Of a DNA stretch of 64,000 nt, positions 1-9,000 are shown piece after piece. Source of the DNA: an uncultured delta proteobacterium (GTDB lineage: Bacteria > Desulfobacterota > Desulfobacteria > Desulfobacterales > SG8-13); NCBI GenBank assembly GCA_963848135.1, contig CAWKCK010000017.1:1148538-1212537 (forward strand). Reading direction: 5' to 3'. The position numbers were made by a program. The first letter of the stretch is position 1; each line of letters opens with the position of its first letter.

Positions 1-3000
1 TTCCACACCCCTGGCACATAAGCGGGTTAACGATCACCTTCTGCTGATCGACATCCAGCATGCGGGCGCCGTAAGGACAGGCATCGATGCACCACTCGCA
101 AAGACTGCAGAGACTGTGACGCACAAGGGCGACAACTTTGCCGGCCGGCAGGTTCTTGCGGTTCAGGATTCGCAGGGAGCGTTGGGCCGCGGCCTCGGCG
201 GTGGCGATCGATTCGGCGATCGAACGGGGCGAATGTGCCAGACCGCAAGCGAAGACGCCCTCCTTGAGCGCATCGACCGGTCGCCACTTCGACTCGGCTT
301 CCTGGAAGAACCCATCCATGTCGCGGTCAATTCCATAGGTGGTAGCAAGATCGGCCGGAAAATTCGGAAGAACGCCCGTGGCCAGAACAAGCAGATCGGT
401 GCTGATCTCGATCTTCCGGCCGATGATCGGTTCGAACACGCTCACCGTTACCGCGCCTTGGTTGATTGCGACCCGCGGTTTGCTTTCCGGACTGTACTGG
501 ATGAAGTCGATGTCGCTTTTGCGCGCCTGGGTGTAATAAGTCTCCGCAAAACCATAGGTCATCATGTCGCGATACAGGACATACACGGCGATGTCTGGAT
601 TCTGCGCTTTCATCTGCAGAGCGTGCTTGAGAGCAGACGCGCAACACACACGGCTGCAGTAATTGCGCGGTTCTTCGCGCGAGTCGACACACTGGATCAT
701 GACCACGTTGTCGAGGCCATGAGGATCGATGGAGCGGTCAGCCAATTTCTGTTCCAGTTCCTTTTGGGTGATGATGGCCGGACAGGTGCCGAAACCGTAT
801 GATGTCGTGGGAGCCTCGTCACCGCCGGTGGCCAGAATCGTGACGCCGTGCTCGAGTGTCTCGACCTTGCCCTCCGGATTTTCAATCGTCGTGTAAAACT
901 GCCCCACATGTCCATAGGCGGCCACAACACGGTTGCCGGTGCGGACCGACACCAGCGGATGTTTATCCACCCTCTGTTCGGTTTCTGCCAGCAAGTCCGG
1001 GATCGCCTGCCCCTCTAATGTCTGTTTGAGCCAAATCAGGTTGCCACCGAGTCGATCGGCCTTCTCGATGATCTCCACCGGGAACCCGTGCTCGGCGATC
1101 GCCAGGGCCGCCGTCATGCCAGCAATACCGCCCCCCACCACCAGGGCGCACTGCTGAATCGGCACCGACACCGTCGGTGACGGATCGATGCGCTTCAGGC
1201 GGGCCAACCCCATTTCCAGTAAAGAATGCAGGCGGTTTACTGAGGGGCCGACTTTCGCCTGGGACGGCTGCACGTCGGCGTCCGGCGCCACGTTCAGCGA
1301 GCGGATATCCACCACGTCCATCAAAGACGGATAAAGGCCGACTTCTCGGGCCAACTGTCTGATATTACGGGCATACACATACGGCAGGCAGGCACCGATC
1401 AGAACCCGATTCGGCTGGCGGCTCTTCACACGTTCGACCAACTCATCCCATCCCGCGGCTGTACAGGTTCTGTCGATGACCTCCACCCCCACAACCATTG
1501 GATCGGCAGCCACCTGCCTTCTCAGGTTATCCACCACAGAGGCTTCCGCCAGGGTCCCGTCGCAGGCACAGATAATGACAAGGATTTGGGGCACCTCCCG
1601 CGAAACGTCTCTCAACGTTGTCTCGGTTTCTGGCTCGGGAGCCAGCCCGCCGCCGGCGCCGTGAATGGTCCGCGAGGCCGCAAGCGCAGCAGCGGACGCC
1701 TGCGTGACCGATTCGCCGATGTCCTTCAACCCTGAAAAAGAGCCCCCCAGCAGAACCCCGTCACGCGACGTTTGCGTGAGAGAAAACGGCACCGTCTGTC
1801 CAAAGCCCCAGCTGTTTAAAGGGATGTCGAGCATCTCGGCCAATGCCACCGAACCGGCCGCCGGTCGCTGCCCGACAGCCAGGACCACCATGTCCTGACG
1901 GGATTCATGCACATGGCCACCGGTGTCGACATATCGGATGATCAGGTCGCCGCTGCCGTCGTCATGCATCACCGAATGAACCCGTCCCCTTTCGAAACGG
2001 ACGCCACATTCGGCTTCCGCCCGATCGCGGTAGCGCTGGAACGGCTTCCCGAAGGTGCGCATATCCATGTAAAAAATAGTGGTTTCGAGAGCACCGACGG
2101 TTTTCTCCCTGGCCACAACGGCTTCTTTGATGGCCGTCATGCAGCAGATATTGGAGCAGAAATCGGCATCGGACTGCAGGTCTCGCGAGCCGACACATTG
2201 AACCCAGGCCACCTTGCGAACCGGCCGCTCATCCCCAGGTCGCACCAGGCGGCCGTCGCTGGGGCCGGTACCGCTGAAGATCCTTTCGAACGCCAGGCTG
2301 GTGACGACCCCCGGCAGGATGCCGTAGCCGAAAGTGTTTTTGCCTTGCGAGGGATCGTAATAAGACGTCCCGCCGCACAGCACCAGGGCGCCGACGTTCA
2401 GACGGCGTCCCTTGGTAGCCTCCACATCCTCATAGATCCTGAGGATCATGGGTATCAGCTTGTCCGGATCGAAAGGTTTGACCAAGTAGTCGAAGGCACC
2501 GGTTTTCATGGCCTCGACGGCGGTCTCCACCGTCGCATAGGCCGTCATCATCACCACACACAAATCGGGGTAGACCTCCTTGGCTTTTTGCAGAACTTCC
2601 ACTCCGTCCATGCCGGGCATCTTGATATCGGTCAGCATGAGGTGATAGGCACCGTCGGCCAACTGTTTCAGCGCAGCGGGCCCGGATTCGGCCATATCGA
2701 CCGAAAACCCCTCGTCTTCGAGCCAGGCCTTCAAGGAGTCACGCACAATCAGTTCGTCGTCCACCACCAGAATGCGGAATGTCTTGCGTTCCTGCTCGGA
2801 AAGCCGGATGGCAGCGGTCGGACACACAGTTTCGCAAGCACCACAGCGGGTACAGGCGCTGAAATCGATTACATACGGGTTCGGTATGGCGTGAGGCACC
2901 GGCAGGTAGATGGCTTTACGGCTGGCCATCCCGAAGTTGAAGGCGTCCGGGACCGTCACCGGACAAACCTTCGCGCAGTCGCCGCACCCAATGCACAGCG

Positions 3001-6000: not shown

Positions 6001-9000
6001 ATGAAAATCGTGCCCTCTTCCTGGCAACGGCGATAGAATTCCTCGTACCCTTTGCCGAAGCAACGCATATCGATGTAAAAATCGTAGACTTTGGTGTCAT
6101 GACCGACTTTTTCCTTGATCAAATGCGTGTATTTCAACGCATACATACAGCACACTCTTGAACAATATTCGTGGTAATTGACATCGCGGCTGCCGATGCA
6201 ATGCAACAGGGCCACACTCCGGGGCGACCGTGTCAACGCGCCGTTCTCGTCTCGAATCCGGATTTTCCCTCCGGTAGGACCGGTGGCATTGCTCAGGCGC
6301 TCAAACTCCAGGGCCGTAAAAACGTTGGGGTAGACGCCGTAACCAAAAGGTTTCATCGGCGTTGGATCCATAGTGTCATAGCCGGTGGCCAGGATGATAC
6401 TGCCCACTTTGACCTGAACTTCCTCCTCCCGCATTCCGTGATCGATGGCAACCGCTTCGCAGGCGCCCACACACGCCATACAGTCGCAGCAAATACCGCA
6501 GTTCAGGCAGCGCCGGGCCTCTCGACGGGCGTCGGCTTCCGTGAAGCTGCGATCGACCTCGGCAAAAGAGCCAACCCTTTCGGTGGCTTCCAAATGACGG
6601 GATTGCAGGCGCATTTCCGGACCAATGTTGCGGGGAATGTCTGCCCAATCGGTGCCGGGCAGCGGCCGCATCTCCATCTCGGCGGCATAGGCGTCCAGGT
6701 CTTCCCCGTCGATGAAACGCTCGATCGCCGCCACCGCCTTGTGGCCGGCCGCCACCGCCTCGATCACCGAGGCCGGACCTGAAACCACATCGCCGGCCGC
6801 AAACACATTCGGAATCGAGGTTTGCATGGTGTGCGGATGAACCCGGATCGTGTTGCGTCGGGTGGCATCGATTCCGGAACTGTCCGCCGCCCAGTTAAGA
6901 TCGATCCTTTGGCCGATGGCCGGCAGGACCGCATCGCACGCCATTACGAATTCGGAGCCTTCGACTGGCACGGGGCGTCGTCGCCCGCTGGCATCCGGCG
7001 GGCCGAGTTCCGTCCGAATGCACTCGAACCCAGTTACACGTCCGTCCTTCCCGACAATCCGCAACGGGGCGGTCAGGTAATGAATTTGCACGCCTTCGGC
7101 CAGGGCATCCTGGATCTCCTCAGGGTAAGCCGGCATTTCTTCACGGCTGCGCCGATAAACGATCGCCACCGATTCGCTCCCCAGGCGCTTGGCGACCCGG
7201 GCTGCATCCACCGCCACATTGCCGCCGCCGATGAACACGACCGTGTCTCCGGGGCGCCTGCGGGATCCCAAATTGACTTCCCGCAGGAAATCGATGGCAT
7301 TGGTTACCCCGTCAAAGTCGTCTTCCCCCGCGATGCCGGTGCCGAGGCCCAGGTGGGCACCGATGGCCAGAAAGACAGCGTTGAATCCCTGTTGCTCGAG
7401 ATCCGTCAAAGTGAAATCACGTCCCAGCCGTTTTCCAGTTTGAACCTTTATTCCATGGCGTAGGAGATGGTCGATCTCACGGTCCAGAATATCGGGGGGT
7501 AGGCGATAGTCCGGTATCCCAACCCGGAGCATGCCGCCCAACACCTCGAGCGCCTCGTAAACAGTAACTTGGTACCCTTTCAACCTCAGGTAATATGCCA
7601 CCGTCAATCCGGCCGGTCCGGAACCGACCACCGCGACCTTTTCCTTGCGCTCGCTGATCGCAGGCAGGGGCAGTTCGGACAAATCGACCTGGTCGGCGGC
7701 AAAGCGCTTCAAGTTGCGGATGGCGACCGCCGTATCGATCTCCGCCCGCCGGCACTGGGTCTCACAGGGATGCGGGCACACCCGCCCGAGAACACCGGGC
7801 AGCGGCAGCCGCTCCATGATCAATTGCACGGCCTGCCTGTATTTGCCCTGGCCGATCAGCTGGACATACCCCTGGACATTGATACTGGCCGGACAGTTCG
7901 TCACACAGGGCGCGCGGTCTTTTTTTTCGATATTGAAGGTAATCGGAATGGCCTGAGGGAAAGCCCTTCCGATGGCTTTGCGCTCCCCCAGCCCCACATC
8001 CCATTCATTGGGCAGTGAGACCGGGCAGACGTTGACGCACTCACCGCAACCGGTACAAATACCCTCTTTGACGTAGCGCGGTTTTCTGTGGATGGTGGCG
8101 GTATAGTTGCCGATGTATCCGGAAACCTCTTTGACCTCGCTGTAGGACAGCAGCTCGATGTTTGCATTCTGGGCCACTTCGACCATTTTGGGGGTACCGA
8201 TGCAAGCGGCGCAGTCGAGGGTGGGGAAGGTCTTGTCGAACTGGAGCATGTGCCCACCGATGGTGGTCCCTTTTTCTACCAGATACACCTTGTGCCCGGA
8301 ATTACCGATATCGATGGCGGCCTGCATTCCGGCTATCCCGCCGCCAACGACCAGCATGTCGGGATAGACGTCGGCCTTACGGGTTTCGAGGCTTTCGTGA
8401 TAGTTGACCCGGTTAATGGCCGCGGCTGTCAGGCTCTTGGCCTTGGCTGTGGCATCGTCTTCGTCTTCGGTGACCCAGGAGACCTGCTCCCTGACGGAGG
8501 CCATCTGGAAGTAATAAGGGTTCAAGCCGGCCCGCTGGCAGGCCGCCATGAAAGTTTTGGCATGCAAACGGGGCGAACAGGAAGCCACCACCACCCGGTT
8601 GAGACCGAAGTCGTGGATGTCTCTTTCGATCATGGCCTGGCCCGGATCGGAGCACATGAATTTGTAATCGCGCGCCACGACGACATTTTGTAATTCACGC
8701 GCGAATGCCGCCACTTCCAAGACCCGCACCTTGTGCGCGATGTTGATCCCGCAGTGGCAGATGTAAAATCCGATTTTTATTTGCATGACCAACCCTATGA
8801 TGGCTATGGACTTTCAGGCTAAACCCACTCCTCCGTATCTTCCAAACACTCGCCCGTGTGGGTTAATGAGTGAATAAGCTGCAAGAGTTCATCCGCTTCC
8901 GGCGGTTTTTTCAGGAATGCCTCCGGCTCGGGCATCGCCCCGCCCGAAGCCGATCTCTTGCATTTGAGGTAGTGAAAACAGGTCTTGCGATCAATGGTAG

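Follow-up and report, generated by a model that had tools for sequence, protein, structure and literature searches.

A CheY-type receiver domain inserted in the double HdrA subunit of an HdrABC/HdrL-type redox complex may place the enzyme under direct two-component control

The window analyzed here is a 64,000-nucleotide stretch of an uncultured member of the Desulfobacterales (contig CAWKCK010000017.1, hereafter C17, positions 1,148,538 to 1,212,537). A cluster of genes for an Hdr-type redox complex crosses its left edge, and the following features were identified at this locus:

<1..3346, minus strand: receiver-bearing fused double HdrA (BamE-type), 1145 aa, hereafter receiver-HdrA (ORF list, translation, Pfam, PDB matches, AF2, Foldseek)
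2804..3010, minus strand: inserted 2x[4Fe-4S] ferredoxin domain of the first HdrA half, aa 113-181 (Pfam Fer4/Fer4_7; aligns to the inserted ferredoxin domain of HdrA)
2405..2791, minus strand: inserted segment aa 186-314, a CheY-type receiver with short linkers (PDB sequence alignment, gap in relatives, AF2)
2444..2773, minus strand: receiver proper (Pfam aa 192-301)
2627..2629, minus strand: codon of Asp240, predicted site of phosphorylation (no substitution in 121 of 121 family members)
3482..4624, minus strand: FrhB/FdhB-like iron-sulfur subunit, 380 aa (Pfam FrhB_FdhB_C and Fer4)
4690..5121, minus strand: MvhD/FlpD adaptor subunit, 143 aa (Pfam FlpD, E 1.3e-53)
5376..8786, minus strand: HdrL, an HdrA with a GltD/NfnB-like NAD(P)H module, 1136/1138 aa (Pfam)
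8819..9262, minus strand: stand-alone 147-aa receiver-like protein, encoded at the head of the cluster (Pfam Response_reg, 28.1 bits, below the cut-off of 30.2)
C17 1147655-1148242, left of the window, minus strand: HdrC-like, 195 aa (Pfam)
C17 1146771-1147658, left of the window, minus strand: HdrB-like, 295 aa (Pfam)
C17 1144402-1146741, left of the window, minus strand: membrane sensor kinase, 779 aa (Pfam, kinase motifs)
C17 1142981-1144177, left of the window, minus strand: REC-HATPase, 398 aa (Pfam)

The receiver-HdrA gene begins with a start codon at window position 3346, and its last 30 codons and stop lie outside the window (C17 1148446-1148537), with the stop 92 nt left of position 1; the 1145 residues were therefore translated from the contig. 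The fusion described in the first-pass annotation was recovered, with the gene cut at the left edge of the window. Pfam places Fer4 modules at aa 113-181, followed by Response_reg at aa 192-301 (profile positions 1-110 of 111, E 5.1e-31, 107.6 bits against a cut-off of 30.2) and then the remaining HdrA, with a second FAD/Pyr_redox start at aa 735. The receiver motifs VVDDE (194), LTDIKMPG (238), MMTAYA (266), and LVKPF (288) were all found. Together with the alignment to PDB sequences, these results confirm the earlier claim of a complete CheY-type receiver after the first ferredoxin module. The receiver belongs to the NtrC class and retains all residues needed for aspartyl phosphorylation.

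The best matches to receiver-HdrA in both sequence and fold were methanogen HdrA structures (PDB 5odc, 8rvv/8rvu, 7bkb), to which both halves align (E 3.5e-114), with shared FeS cysteine motifs and FAD fold. Residues 7-185 align to HdrA 142-310 and residues 315-499 to HdrA 315-497, so that residues 186-314 form an exact insertion between HdrA positions 310 and 315, where methanogen HdrA has no receiver. This segment is absent from the receiver-less double HdrAs aligned as well, and these relatives show a clean alignment gap in its place. In the second half, residues 586-762 align to the HdrA N-terminal domain and 966-1144 to its C-terminal part; whereas methanogen HdrA is a single unit that forms a homodimer, receiver-HdrA is a fused asymmetric pair. 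The AF2 model (pLDDT 89.1, pTM 0.88) yielded HdrA chains as the best Foldseek matches, with target-normalised TM-scores up to 0.92, and folds the receiver as (beta-alpha)5, from beta1 (191-195) through alpha5 (294-311), the latter joined by only 2 residues to the flavin-domain strand 314-318. These data identify the gene product as the central flavin subunit of a cytoplasmic HdrABC/HdrL-type redox complex found in sulfate reducers.

Receiver-HdrA has the fused double-HdrA organization known from the solved structure of BamE, the HdrA-type subunit of the class II benzoyl-CoA reductase of Geobacter metallireducens. Passages of the BamE preprint (bioRxiv 10.64898/2026.04.10.717634) describe a fused HdrA dimer in which the first flavin, with Lys280 and Cys59-Cys62 alongside, bifurcates, and in which the inserted ferredoxin domain is the low-potential output, the cluster distances to this domain differing between two states. 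As far as those passages describe BamE, both proteins join two HdrA units in a single polypeptide, and every unit has an FAD domain of the thioredoxin-reductase-like type; both also carry, in their first unit, one inserted ferredoxin domain with two clusters, have a Lys and a pair of cysteines next to the first flavin, and associate with MvhD- and HdrB/C-type partners. In the family alignment, C56, C59, and K407 of receiver-HdrA are invariant, and ferredoxin-domain cysteines 118, 121, 124, 128, 165, 168, 171, and 175 are invariant or almost so; C56/C59/K407 are equated with the Cys59/Cys62/Lys280 given for BamE by numbering offset rather than by alignment to BamE. By analogy with BamE and HdrA, in both of which it has this role, the inserted ferredoxin domain of receiver-HdrA is likely the low-potential output arm. 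At the second flavin, K907, at the position matching K407, stands where the preprint passages place Gln768 in BamE, an equivalence again by offset only. The proteins differ in that BamE is described there without a receiver, whereas receiver-HdrA has 129 residues inserted directly after the ferredoxin arm; without them it would comprise ~1016 aa, compared to 1000-1030 aa for receiver-less relatives. In addition, the receiver-HdrA cluster lacks the BamB/C tungsten module and BamGHI, and encodes instead HdrL, an FrhB-like subunit, and HdrC and HdrB as separate proteins.

This combination of HdrL (HdrA with an NAD(P)H module), MvhD, an FdhB/FrhB-like FeS protein, HdrA, HdrC, and HdrB is, as given in passages of the respective papers, that of the HdrABC/HdrL cluster of Syntrophobacter fumaroxidans (Sfum_0819-0824; PMC5947623) and of hdrL/hdrA4 locus VIII of Desulfobacterium autotrophicum HRM2 (PMC2702500), from which the name HdrL is taken. 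The function of the complex had been listed as unknown, which is true only in part, since the S. fumaroxidans cluster is stated in PMC5947623 to be abundant only with sulfate. The passages of these two papers do not discuss a receiver inside HdrA. The Fig. 4 legend of the D. autotrophicum genome paper mentions a response regulator, a histidine kinase, and a CheY-like regulator near hdr loci, the locus being unstated, and the color key of Fig. S3a in this 2009 paper includes "response regulator receiver domaine" among Hdr domains (PMC2702500). The proposal that the architecture is uncatalogued accordingly holds for the 11 HdrA architectures of a 2024 preprint, in which the words response, receiver, and regulator have no occurrences, but not for the 2009 color key. 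Public annotations of receiver-HdrA relatives already read "response regulator", and the literature searched held no analysis of an Hdr receiver domain beyond the Fig. S3a entry. The receiver-HdrA form is widespread but unstudied.

The Hdr-type partner genes reported for the operon are present, and HdrL and the 147-aa receiver-like protein extend it. In most related loci, an FrhB/FdhB-like ortholog immediately precedes the receiver-HdrA gene, and MvhD/FlpD orthologs in these loci are 74-88% identical. In HdrL, Pfam detects Fer4_20 at 293-369 and Pyr_redox_2 at 385-683, and tblastn matches residues 144-287 and 788-1033 to receiver-HdrA 7-161 and 312-547, respectively, so that its NAD(P)H module (insert at ~aa 288-787) occupies the site equivalent to that of the receiver. 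A ~1500-aa double HdrA, P0159, likewise carries a GltD/NfnB-like insert (Fer4_20 at 170-247, Pyr_redox_2 at 280-577) at this point, past the first ferredoxin motif and before the flavin-domain return strand. The insert in HdrL and P0159 is an NAD(P)H-binding redox module, a catalytic addition, whereas that in receiver-HdrA is a signaling domain.

The fusion could in principle reflect an error of assembly or gene calling, or a recent accidental event confined to one genome, a reading that we weighed given that the gene is cut by the window edge. We regard its probability as negligible: no evidence in its favor was found, the reading frame continues through the junctions for all 1145 aa, PF00072 is present in all 120 close clusters among the matches listed (lengths 941-1177 aa, several independent sources), and, of 300 other genomes in the order, 110 (47 of 89 families) contain an uninterrupted end-to-end match with no stops. 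The end-to-end conservation claimed earlier was therefore borne out, while restriction to the order was not, as end-to-end matches to the junction query also came from outside it, in 5 of 291 genomes sampled across the phylum's other orders. Among the best 150 representatives at 50% identity, 16 have the receiver at the same site, and the insertion site is identical across all receiver-bearing proteins examined. A tree computed with the receiver columns removed placed all 14 receiver rows inside one 16-row clade (support 99). This fits a single gain, in which the receiver would have been inserted once, in one clade, in the short linker between the ferredoxin arm and the flavin domain.

Receiver domains can also serve as structural modules, for example in dimerisation or docking, independently of phosphorylation, and one derived from a response regulator might do so here. 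Consistent with this, one 50%-cluster representative, P0125, still has the inserted domain, but Gly stands in place of the Thr and His in place of the Lys, and Pfam detects no receiver in it; the inserted domain can therefore persist without phospho-chemistry. The 147-aa receiver-like protein, with a TTG start preceded by an AAGGAGG ribosome-binding site, has Asn at the acceptor position in 3 of 7 aligned ortholog rows (two of which, L005 and L121, are one contig). However, the phospho-chemistry residues D196, D197, D240, T268, and K290 and the switch tyrosine Y287 of receiver-HdrA are invariant in 121 of 121 relatives, and the 8 other receiver-bearing representatives in the P0125 alignment all keep the phospho-chemistry residues. 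Few parts of the protein are as well conserved as the receiver, which has a mean identity of 0.80 compared to 0.71 and 0.66 in the two flavin-domain stretches measured, indicating strong constraint. The neighboring kinases bear on this reading as well.

The histidine kinase reported just downstream is present but is not the only one, as two were found. The first, of 779 aa, is a membrane HAMP-PAS-PAS-HisKA-HATPase with two haem-c-type motifs in its periplasmic domain and Cys-bearing PAS domains; its orthologs share the haem-type motifs as well as the PAS Cys motif and the H-box. Based on these motifs, this kinase is probably a sensor of redox state. An ortholog (49-67% identity), usually then followed by a REC-kinase gene, is encoded no more than 10 kb downstream in 21 of the 26 unique receiver-bearing loci (10 of 12 in a first set and 11 of 14 further loci), and it is retained in 6 receiver-bearing loci that lack hdrCB. 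In contrast, none was found near receiver-less relatives (0 of 5 loci). Five of the 26 loci have no ortholog nearby, which would favor a structural role: L114 has no kinase gene within the 8 kb read downstream of hdrB, L116 and L117 show only a weak opposite-strand match of kinase type where L018 has a soluble PAS kinase beside a Usp-REC protein, and L009 has a different REC and kinase. Nevertheless, the partnership of kinase and receiver, for which the first-pass annotation had no evidence, is now backed by conserved gene order, and given this association and the invariant residues, we consider a purely structural receiver improbable.

Given that the receiver sits inside the electron-splitting half and is accompanied by sensor kinases, the enzyme may be switched directly by phosphorylation. 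We hypothesize that the co-inherited membrane kinase phosphorylates Asp240, either directly or via the adjacent REC-kinase, and that this would shift the alpha4-beta5-alpha5 face, as is usual in receivers, with alpha5 passing the shift straight into the flavin-domain strand. The ferredoxin arm could then be repositioned or gain or lose mobility, or two enzyme units could pair differently; in either case the low-potential electron output would be opened or closed during bifurcation or confurcation among NAD(P)H (via HdrL), ferredoxin, and a disulfide acceptor (via HdrBC, possibly DsrC). In CheB, PleD, and RpfG, a phosphorylatable CheY-type receiver controls the enzyme of the same polypeptide. 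Their receivers are N-terminal and linker-joined, whereas that of receiver-HdrA is internal, tethered at both ends, and within a multi-cofactor redox subunit.

Information might instead flow in the opposite direction, with the enzyme-borne receiver acting as a signaling node, either a phosphate sink or a redox-dependent competitor. Its uptake or holding of phosphate would then be set by the redox or occupancy state of the Hdr complex, tuning the phosphate that reaches the REC-kinase and the small receiver and, hence, gene expression. The cluster contains three receivers and two kinases with no DNA-binding response regulator, and the two divergent sigma-54 activators bear PAS domains rather than receivers (Pfam), as this possibility would accommodate. 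Furthermore, a paralog of the 779-aa kinase elsewhere in the genome (63.5% identity) has its own REC-kinases and adjoins a NuoF-like flavoprotein, which suggests that kinases of this family are generally associated with redox enzymes. A phosphate sink, however, would need no fixed, tight tethering within the enzyme, and an insertion site that is constant and lies where the electron-output arm hinges is easier to reconcile with control of the enzyme. We therefore view this reversed flow as rather unlikely, and think it reasonably probable that the core energy enzyme is itself the output of a two-component pathway, switched directly via phosphorylation of its receiver. If this is true, flavin-based bifurcation or confurcation by this complex would be under fast post-translational control.

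The 1145-aa protein P0001, a fused double HdrA of the BamE type, had been described in the first-pass annotation as a tandem HdrA with a complete receiver domain lying between its Fer4 modules and the rest of the HdrA-like flavoprotein, and Pfam analysis bore this out. The Response_reg match covers aa 192-301 and positions 1-110 of the 111-position profile (E 5.1e-31), scores 107.6 bits where the cut-off is 30.2, and is flanked by Fer4 modules at aa 113-181 and by the HdrA-like remainder, in which the second FAD-binding region starts at aa 735. The gene starts at window position 3346 and runs past the left edge, and the full 1145 aa were translated from contig G000:C17. 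Two thioredoxin-reductase-like FAD domains are present in the one chain (GxGxxG/Pyr_redox matches at aa 8-41 and 735-851); further Fer4 matches begin near aa 1061 in the protein as cut at the window edge, and the full protein has cysteine motifs at C1080-C1121. In a PDB sequence search, residues 7-185 corresponded to HdrA 142-310, which comprises the flavin domain's first part together with the inserted ferredoxin domain, and residues 315-499 to HdrA 315-497. Because these segments align to near-contiguous stretches of HdrA, the 129 residues between them (186-314) constitute an exact insertion where the ferredoxin arm rejoins the flavin domain. Residues 586-762 matched the HdrA N-terminal domain and the beginning of the second flavin domain, and residues 966-1144 the flavin-domain end and the C-terminal ferredoxin domain. 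P0001 is a fused asymmetric HdrA pair, with the ferredoxin arm and receiver in unit 1 and the N-terminal together with the C-terminal domain, without a ferredoxin arm, in unit 2. Cysteines at 118-128, 165-175, 384/397/401/402, 886/897/901/902 and 1080-1121 are invariant or nearly so.

A confident AlphaFold2 model of P0001 was built from an 80-sequence alignment (mean pLDDT 89.1, pTM 0.88). The best Foldseek matches to it were the HdrA chains in complexes from methanogens, for which the target-normalised TM-score reached 0.92. The modeled receiver consists of five strand-helix units (aa 191-311), from beta1 at 191-195 to alpha5 at 294-311, and the flavin-domain strand 314-318 begins two residues past alpha5. 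The PDB relatives of the receiver by sequence are those of NtrC, FleR, DctD, FixJ and CheY. P0001 holds a putatively phosphorylation-competent receiver that is tethered at both ends via very short linkers. In response regulators with enzyme outputs of the CheB/PleD type, the receiver is N-terminal and the output domain C-terminal. The receiver of P0001 instead occupies aa 186-314 within the 1145-aa chain and has enzyme sequence before and after it, so that P0001 resembles the CheB/PleD type in its predicted working but not in its build.

The gene for P0001 belongs to a minus-strand cluster that fills the first 9.3 kb of the window in the ORF list and continues beyond its left edge.

Genes of the cluster in order of transcription, followed by the divergent activators, with domains assigned by Pfam
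8819..9262, minus strand: small weak receiver of 147 aa, first gene transcribed, Pfam score below the cut-off
5376..8786, minus strand: HdrL, which is an HdrA carrying a GltD/NfnB-like NAD(P)H module, second gene
4690..5121, minus strand: MvhD/FlpD, third gene
3482..4624, minus strand: FrhB/FdhB-like FeS protein, fourth gene
<1..3346, minus strand: receiver-bearing HdrA (P0001), fifth gene
left of the window, minus strand: HdrC-like protein of 195 aa, then HdrB-like protein of 295 aa with two CCG domains
left of the window, contig C17 1144402-1146741, minus strand: membrane kinase of 779 aa with HAMP, two PAS, HisKA and HATPase domains
left of the window, minus strand: REC-HATPase protein of 398 aa, last of the cluster
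9946..11679 and 11989..13707, divergent from the cluster: two PAS/sigma-54/HTH activators

Pfam analysis of all six proteins confirmed the Hdr-type context that had been proposed for the tandem HdrA (HdrB/C-like, FrhB-like and MvhD/FlpD genes beside it): HdrL, MvhD, the FdhB/FrhB-like FeS protein, HdrA, HdrC and HdrB are adjacent and form a complete HdrABC/HdrL-type set, the order of which matches that in related loci by tblastn. The same annotation had placed one histidine kinase downstream; a kinase is indeed there, but the cluster has two kinase genes, encoding the 779-aa and 398-aa proteins, rather than one. The HdrABC/HdrL cluster of Syntrophobacter fumaroxidans (Sfum_0819-0824) has the same gene set, and the available text of that study reports its proteins as abundant only with sulfate and proposes a link to DsrC (PMC5947623). 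Locus VIII of Desulfobacterium autotrophicum HRM2 (hdrL/hdrA4, hdrCB and an fdhB-like gene) likewise has this gene set, as far as the excerpts of its genome report describe it (PMC2702500). Judging from Fdh-Hdr complexes, an input partner is a likelier role for the FrhB-like subunit than a neighbor of the receiver.

The flanks of the cluster contain further features. The small receiver (8819..9262) keeps its acceptor Asp, which is replaced by Asn in three of seven aligned ortholog rows (L005, L121 and L122, the first two being one contig; rows were taken from related loci L004-L007, L121, L122 and L125). Both divergent sigma-54 activators have, as read from the sequence, the PAS cysteine motif C-x9-C-x3-C. 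The intergenic region 9263..9945 is AT-rich (GC 0.43), with repeated TTGCAA-type half-sites near 9455-9560. A search for the sigma-54 pattern TGGCAC-N5-TTGC with at most two mismatches returned 82 matches vs 64.8 expected; no match with the GG/GC pair, and no convincing -24/-12 promoter, was found in intergenic 9263-9945.

The position occupied by the receiver also accommodates other domains. In HdrL, tblastn and Pfam placed a GltD/NfnB-like module of about 500 residues between the parts matching P0001 7-161 and 312-547, and double HdrAs of ~1500 aa, such as the representative P0159, carry a GltD/NfnB-like module at the same place. Since the NAD(P)H module of both protein types sits there, the hinge after the ferredoxin motif is a hot spot for domain grafts. 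It exists in no fewer than three states: BamE-like proteins have a short linker, HdrL the NAD(P)H module and P0001 the receiver.

To assess conservation of the receiver, we used a 121-member family consisting of the query and 120 listed clusters, which are 72-92% identical to the query across its first 520 residues. Five positions, D196, D197, D240 (the acceptor), T268 and K290, do not vary in 121/121 relatives, and neither does Y287, the aromatic switch residue. Identity to the query averages 0.80 for the receiver, compared to 0.71 and 0.66 for the two flavin-domain stretches measured and 0.45 for the N-terminal-like domain. The invariance of these residues, together with the high identity of the receiver, therefore points to constraint of the kind expected for phosphorylation. 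Among nine aligned receiver-bearing representatives at 50% identity, eight keep the phospho-chemistry residues. The exception, P0125 (1155 aa), retains the inserted domain, which Pfam does not detect as a receiver, with Thr replaced by Gly and Lys by His; its sequence marks it as a pseudo-receiver variant of the same architecture, in one lineage.

BamE of class II benzoyl-CoA reductase, solved by cryo-EM, is a fused HdrA dimer according to the accessible portion of the report, in which the first flavin bifurcates, with Lys280 and Cys59-Cys62 beside it, and the second flavin is structural (bioRxiv 10.64898/2026.04.10.717634). That portion also describes the inserted ferredoxin domain as the low-potential output and gives a cluster-to-cluster distance to it that changes from 23 to 12 Å between two states (bioRxiv 10.64898/2026.04.10.717634). 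C56, C59 and K407 of P0001 are invariant in 121/121 relatives and fit BamE Cys59, Cys62 and Lys280, a correspondence made by numbering offset minus the 129-aa insert and not by alignment to BamE. The receiver occupies the hinge of a domain whose counterpart in the nearest relatives of solved structure exports low-potential electrons and moves in turnover.

Linkage of the kinases to the receiver-bearing HdrA was examined by comparing nine cluster proteins with related loci by tblastn. A first set comprised 16 loci with a full junction match, 12 of which had at least 2.5 kb of downstream sequence, and a full-length ortholog of the 779-aa kinase (55-64% identity) was found in 10 of these 12, directly after HdrA or hdrCB. 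In a second set of 15 further loci from other families, with 10 kb of downstream sequence each, 12 had the ortholog, for a total of 21 of 26 unique loci (one locus is common to both sets); the match excluded the N-terminal sensor part in two of the 21. Six loci without hdrC and hdrB have the kinase directly after the HdrA gene, and because they lack hdrCB yet have the kinase, the latter is tied to the receiver-bearing HdrA more tightly than HdrBC is. No ortholog was found within about 10 kb in any of five receiver-less relatives examined, an absence that, given the greater distance of those relatives (38-47% identity), reflects association with the clade and not independent co-loss. Of the five loci without the ortholog, L114 has no kinase gene within 8 kb downstream of hdrB, and in L018 the opposite strand (10877-14620) encodes a soluble kinase with three PAS domains, next to one protein of Usp-REC type and one that is HdrD-like. 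By tblastn, L116 and L117 show only a weak opposite-strand kinase-type match at the same place as the L018 kinase, and L009 has another REC and kinase in place of the ortholog. The receiver is co-inherited with a dedicated sensor kinase pair.

A purely structural role for the receiver seems improbable, in view of its conservation; speaking for such a role are the pseudo-receiver of P0125 and the loci without the kinase, and these two alone.

The 779-aa kinase has hydrophobic segments at 19-43 and 201-236, and its periplasmic domain contains C-F-I-C-H and a second motif, C-x4-C-H, which resemble a pair of c-type haem sites. The C-x2-C-H and C-x3/4-C-H motifs are kept in all 20 ortholog rows that have the N-terminal part, and C-x10-C-x2-C in the first PAS domain is kept in 22/22 rows, all of which also have an almost unchanged H-box. 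Together with a sub-threshold Pfam match to the Mcp40H-20 sensor family, these motifs suggest that the kinase is probably a periplasmic c-type-haem redox sensor. The 398-aa protein has the DD/D/T/K residues and a conserved His box in 11 orthologs, and either kinase may be the donor to the HdrA receiver, since sequence does not tell the two apart in this respect. A full-length, 63.5%-identical paralog of the 779-aa kinase is encoded elsewhere in the same genome (L133, G000:C17:264001-282000), flanked by REC-PAS-HATPase (669 aa) and REC-HATPase (394 aa) proteins. Its neighbors include a NuoF-like flavoprotein (Complex1_51K) and a NuoG-N-terminal-like 2Fe-2S protein, with Usp and HdrD-like proteins upstream; as the paralog adjoins the NuoF-like and NuoG-like genes, the kinase family lies beside a second flavin/FeS redox module.

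The composition of the cluster, with three receivers, two kinases and no DNA-binding regulator, is also consistent with the main rival explanation, in which signaling runs in reverse and the enzyme-borne receiver acts as a redox-dependent sink or node. We consider this unlikely, and favor phosphorylation of the receiver as the input to the enzyme.

To determine how widespread the receiver form is, we performed a HMMER scan of 1.84 billion representatives, which returned 2087 proteins at E <= 1e-30. As judged by a purpose-built HMM of the receiver columns, 16 of the best 150 of these have a receiver at the same site and 134 do not; most of those lacking it are double HdrAs, 1000-1030 aa long, in which the junction aligns as a clean gap. 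In a FastTree phylogeny of 103 rows with the receiver columns taken out, all 14 receiver rows fell in one 16-row clade (support 99), the other two rows of which are receiver-less. This topology fits one receiver gain and at most two losses. One receiver-less type, which resembles P0132, is a paralog with another gene context, found in a genome that also has the receiver form. The receiver is unlikely to have been copied from the neighboring REC-kinase, being only 37-39% identical to that kinase's receiver; its identity is 55-57% to NtrC-type receivers of other phyla and 58% to the Usp-REC protein in L018.

Within the order, an uninterrupted match from residue <=8 to >=1129 was present in 110 of 300 other genomes, spanning 47 of 89 family labels, and cut matches still spanning residues 186-314 were present in 17 further genomes, all among the matches listed, outside which are 410 weaker ones. 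A 201-aa junction query matched end to end in 5 of 291 genomes sampled from other orders of the phylum (frames of 1153-1191 aa) and in 2 of 9 same-order genomes in that sample. Based on the 110/300 and 5/291 counts, the receiver form is frequent in the order and infrequent, though not absent, beyond it; these counts come from samples that contain related and so non-independent genomes. The 1145-aa open frame, the 120 listed clusters and the uninterrupted matches in 110 genomes rule out an artefact of assembly or fusion. The genome to which the window belongs encodes the receiver form once, alongside seven double HdrA paralogs that lack the receiver. These paralogs (contigs C5, C7, C12 and C18; BamE-like) are 35-39% identical to P0001 over aa ~310-1144, several adjoin MvhD-like genes, and two of their regions (C18, C7) overlap matches to HdrL aa 144-1033, NAD(P)H module included. 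Some orthologs, in genomes G040, G065, G175, G255 and G300, contain one in-frame TGA within the match, and one also a TAG; the TGA could be selenocysteine or a sign of broken genes. Selenocysteine is reported in Hdr proteins in the available text on D. autotrophicum (PMC2702500).

In the literature searched, no paper was found that discusses a receiver inside HdrA, and none reporting that a sensor kinase controls an Hdr-type enzyme directly at the post-translational level. A 2011 comparative genomics paper on sulfate-reducer energy metabolism, which reportedly described HdrL, may mention such a receiver, and a review on HdrA(BC) may bear on it. Public annotations name the relatives of P0001 either 'response regulator' or 'heterodisulfide reductase subunit A', and the hits include a protein that bears the name of Desulfonema magnum, a cultivable relative. 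The architecture had been put forward as uncatalogued for HdrA, and a 2024 preprint cataloguing 11 HdrA architectures has zero occurrences of response, receiver or regulator. However, the color key of Fig. S3a in the 2009 D. autotrophicum report already includes 'response regulator receiver domaine' among Hdr-protein domains, and the excerpted Fig. 4 legend numbers a response regulator, a histidine kinase and a CheY-like regulator near hdr loci, locus unspecified (PMC2702500). The finding is a known enzyme type joined to a known switch, in an arrangement already drawn but unstudied.

Phosphorylation of receivers shifts their alpha4-beta5-alpha5 face. In P0001, phosphorylation of Asp240 would be expected to shift this face, and the shift, relayed through alpha5, could alter where the ferredoxin arm lies or how freely it moves, or how the enzyme units pair, so that electron output would be opened or closed. 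We are highly confident that the insertion is real, conserved and phosphorylatable, with a linked kinase; that phosphorylation controls the enzyme is reasonably likely, and that it does so specifically by gating the ferredoxin arm is a tentative proposal. Equally speculative is the full model, in which a two-component system would have an electron-bifurcating enzyme as its terminal output, a periplasmic dihaem kinase would read redox conditions outside the cytoplasm, Asp240 phosphorylation would move or lock the ferredoxin arm, bifurcation would be coupled or uncoupled within seconds to set the NAD(P)H/ferredoxin/DsrC balance, and the hinge would accept grafts in general.

The energy economy of anaerobes depends centrally on flavin-based electron bifurcation, and here a strongly conserved putative phosphorylation switch lies at the hinge of an electron-output arm in 110 of 300 sampled genomes of an order with many marine sulfate reducers, traveling with a kinase that resembles a periplasmic redox sensor. 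If the model is true, the NAD(P)H/ferredoxin/DsrC balance would be set in this way in about 40% of the genomes sampled from a major sulfate-reducer order. Grafts in general would then be placed at the hinge that follows the ferredoxin arm, which takes a short linker, a module for NAD(P)H or a switch, and the receiver would offer a handle both on how moving domains gate the flow of electrons in HdrA-type enzymes and on how sulfate reducers fit their cytoplasmic redox carriers to conditions outside the cell.
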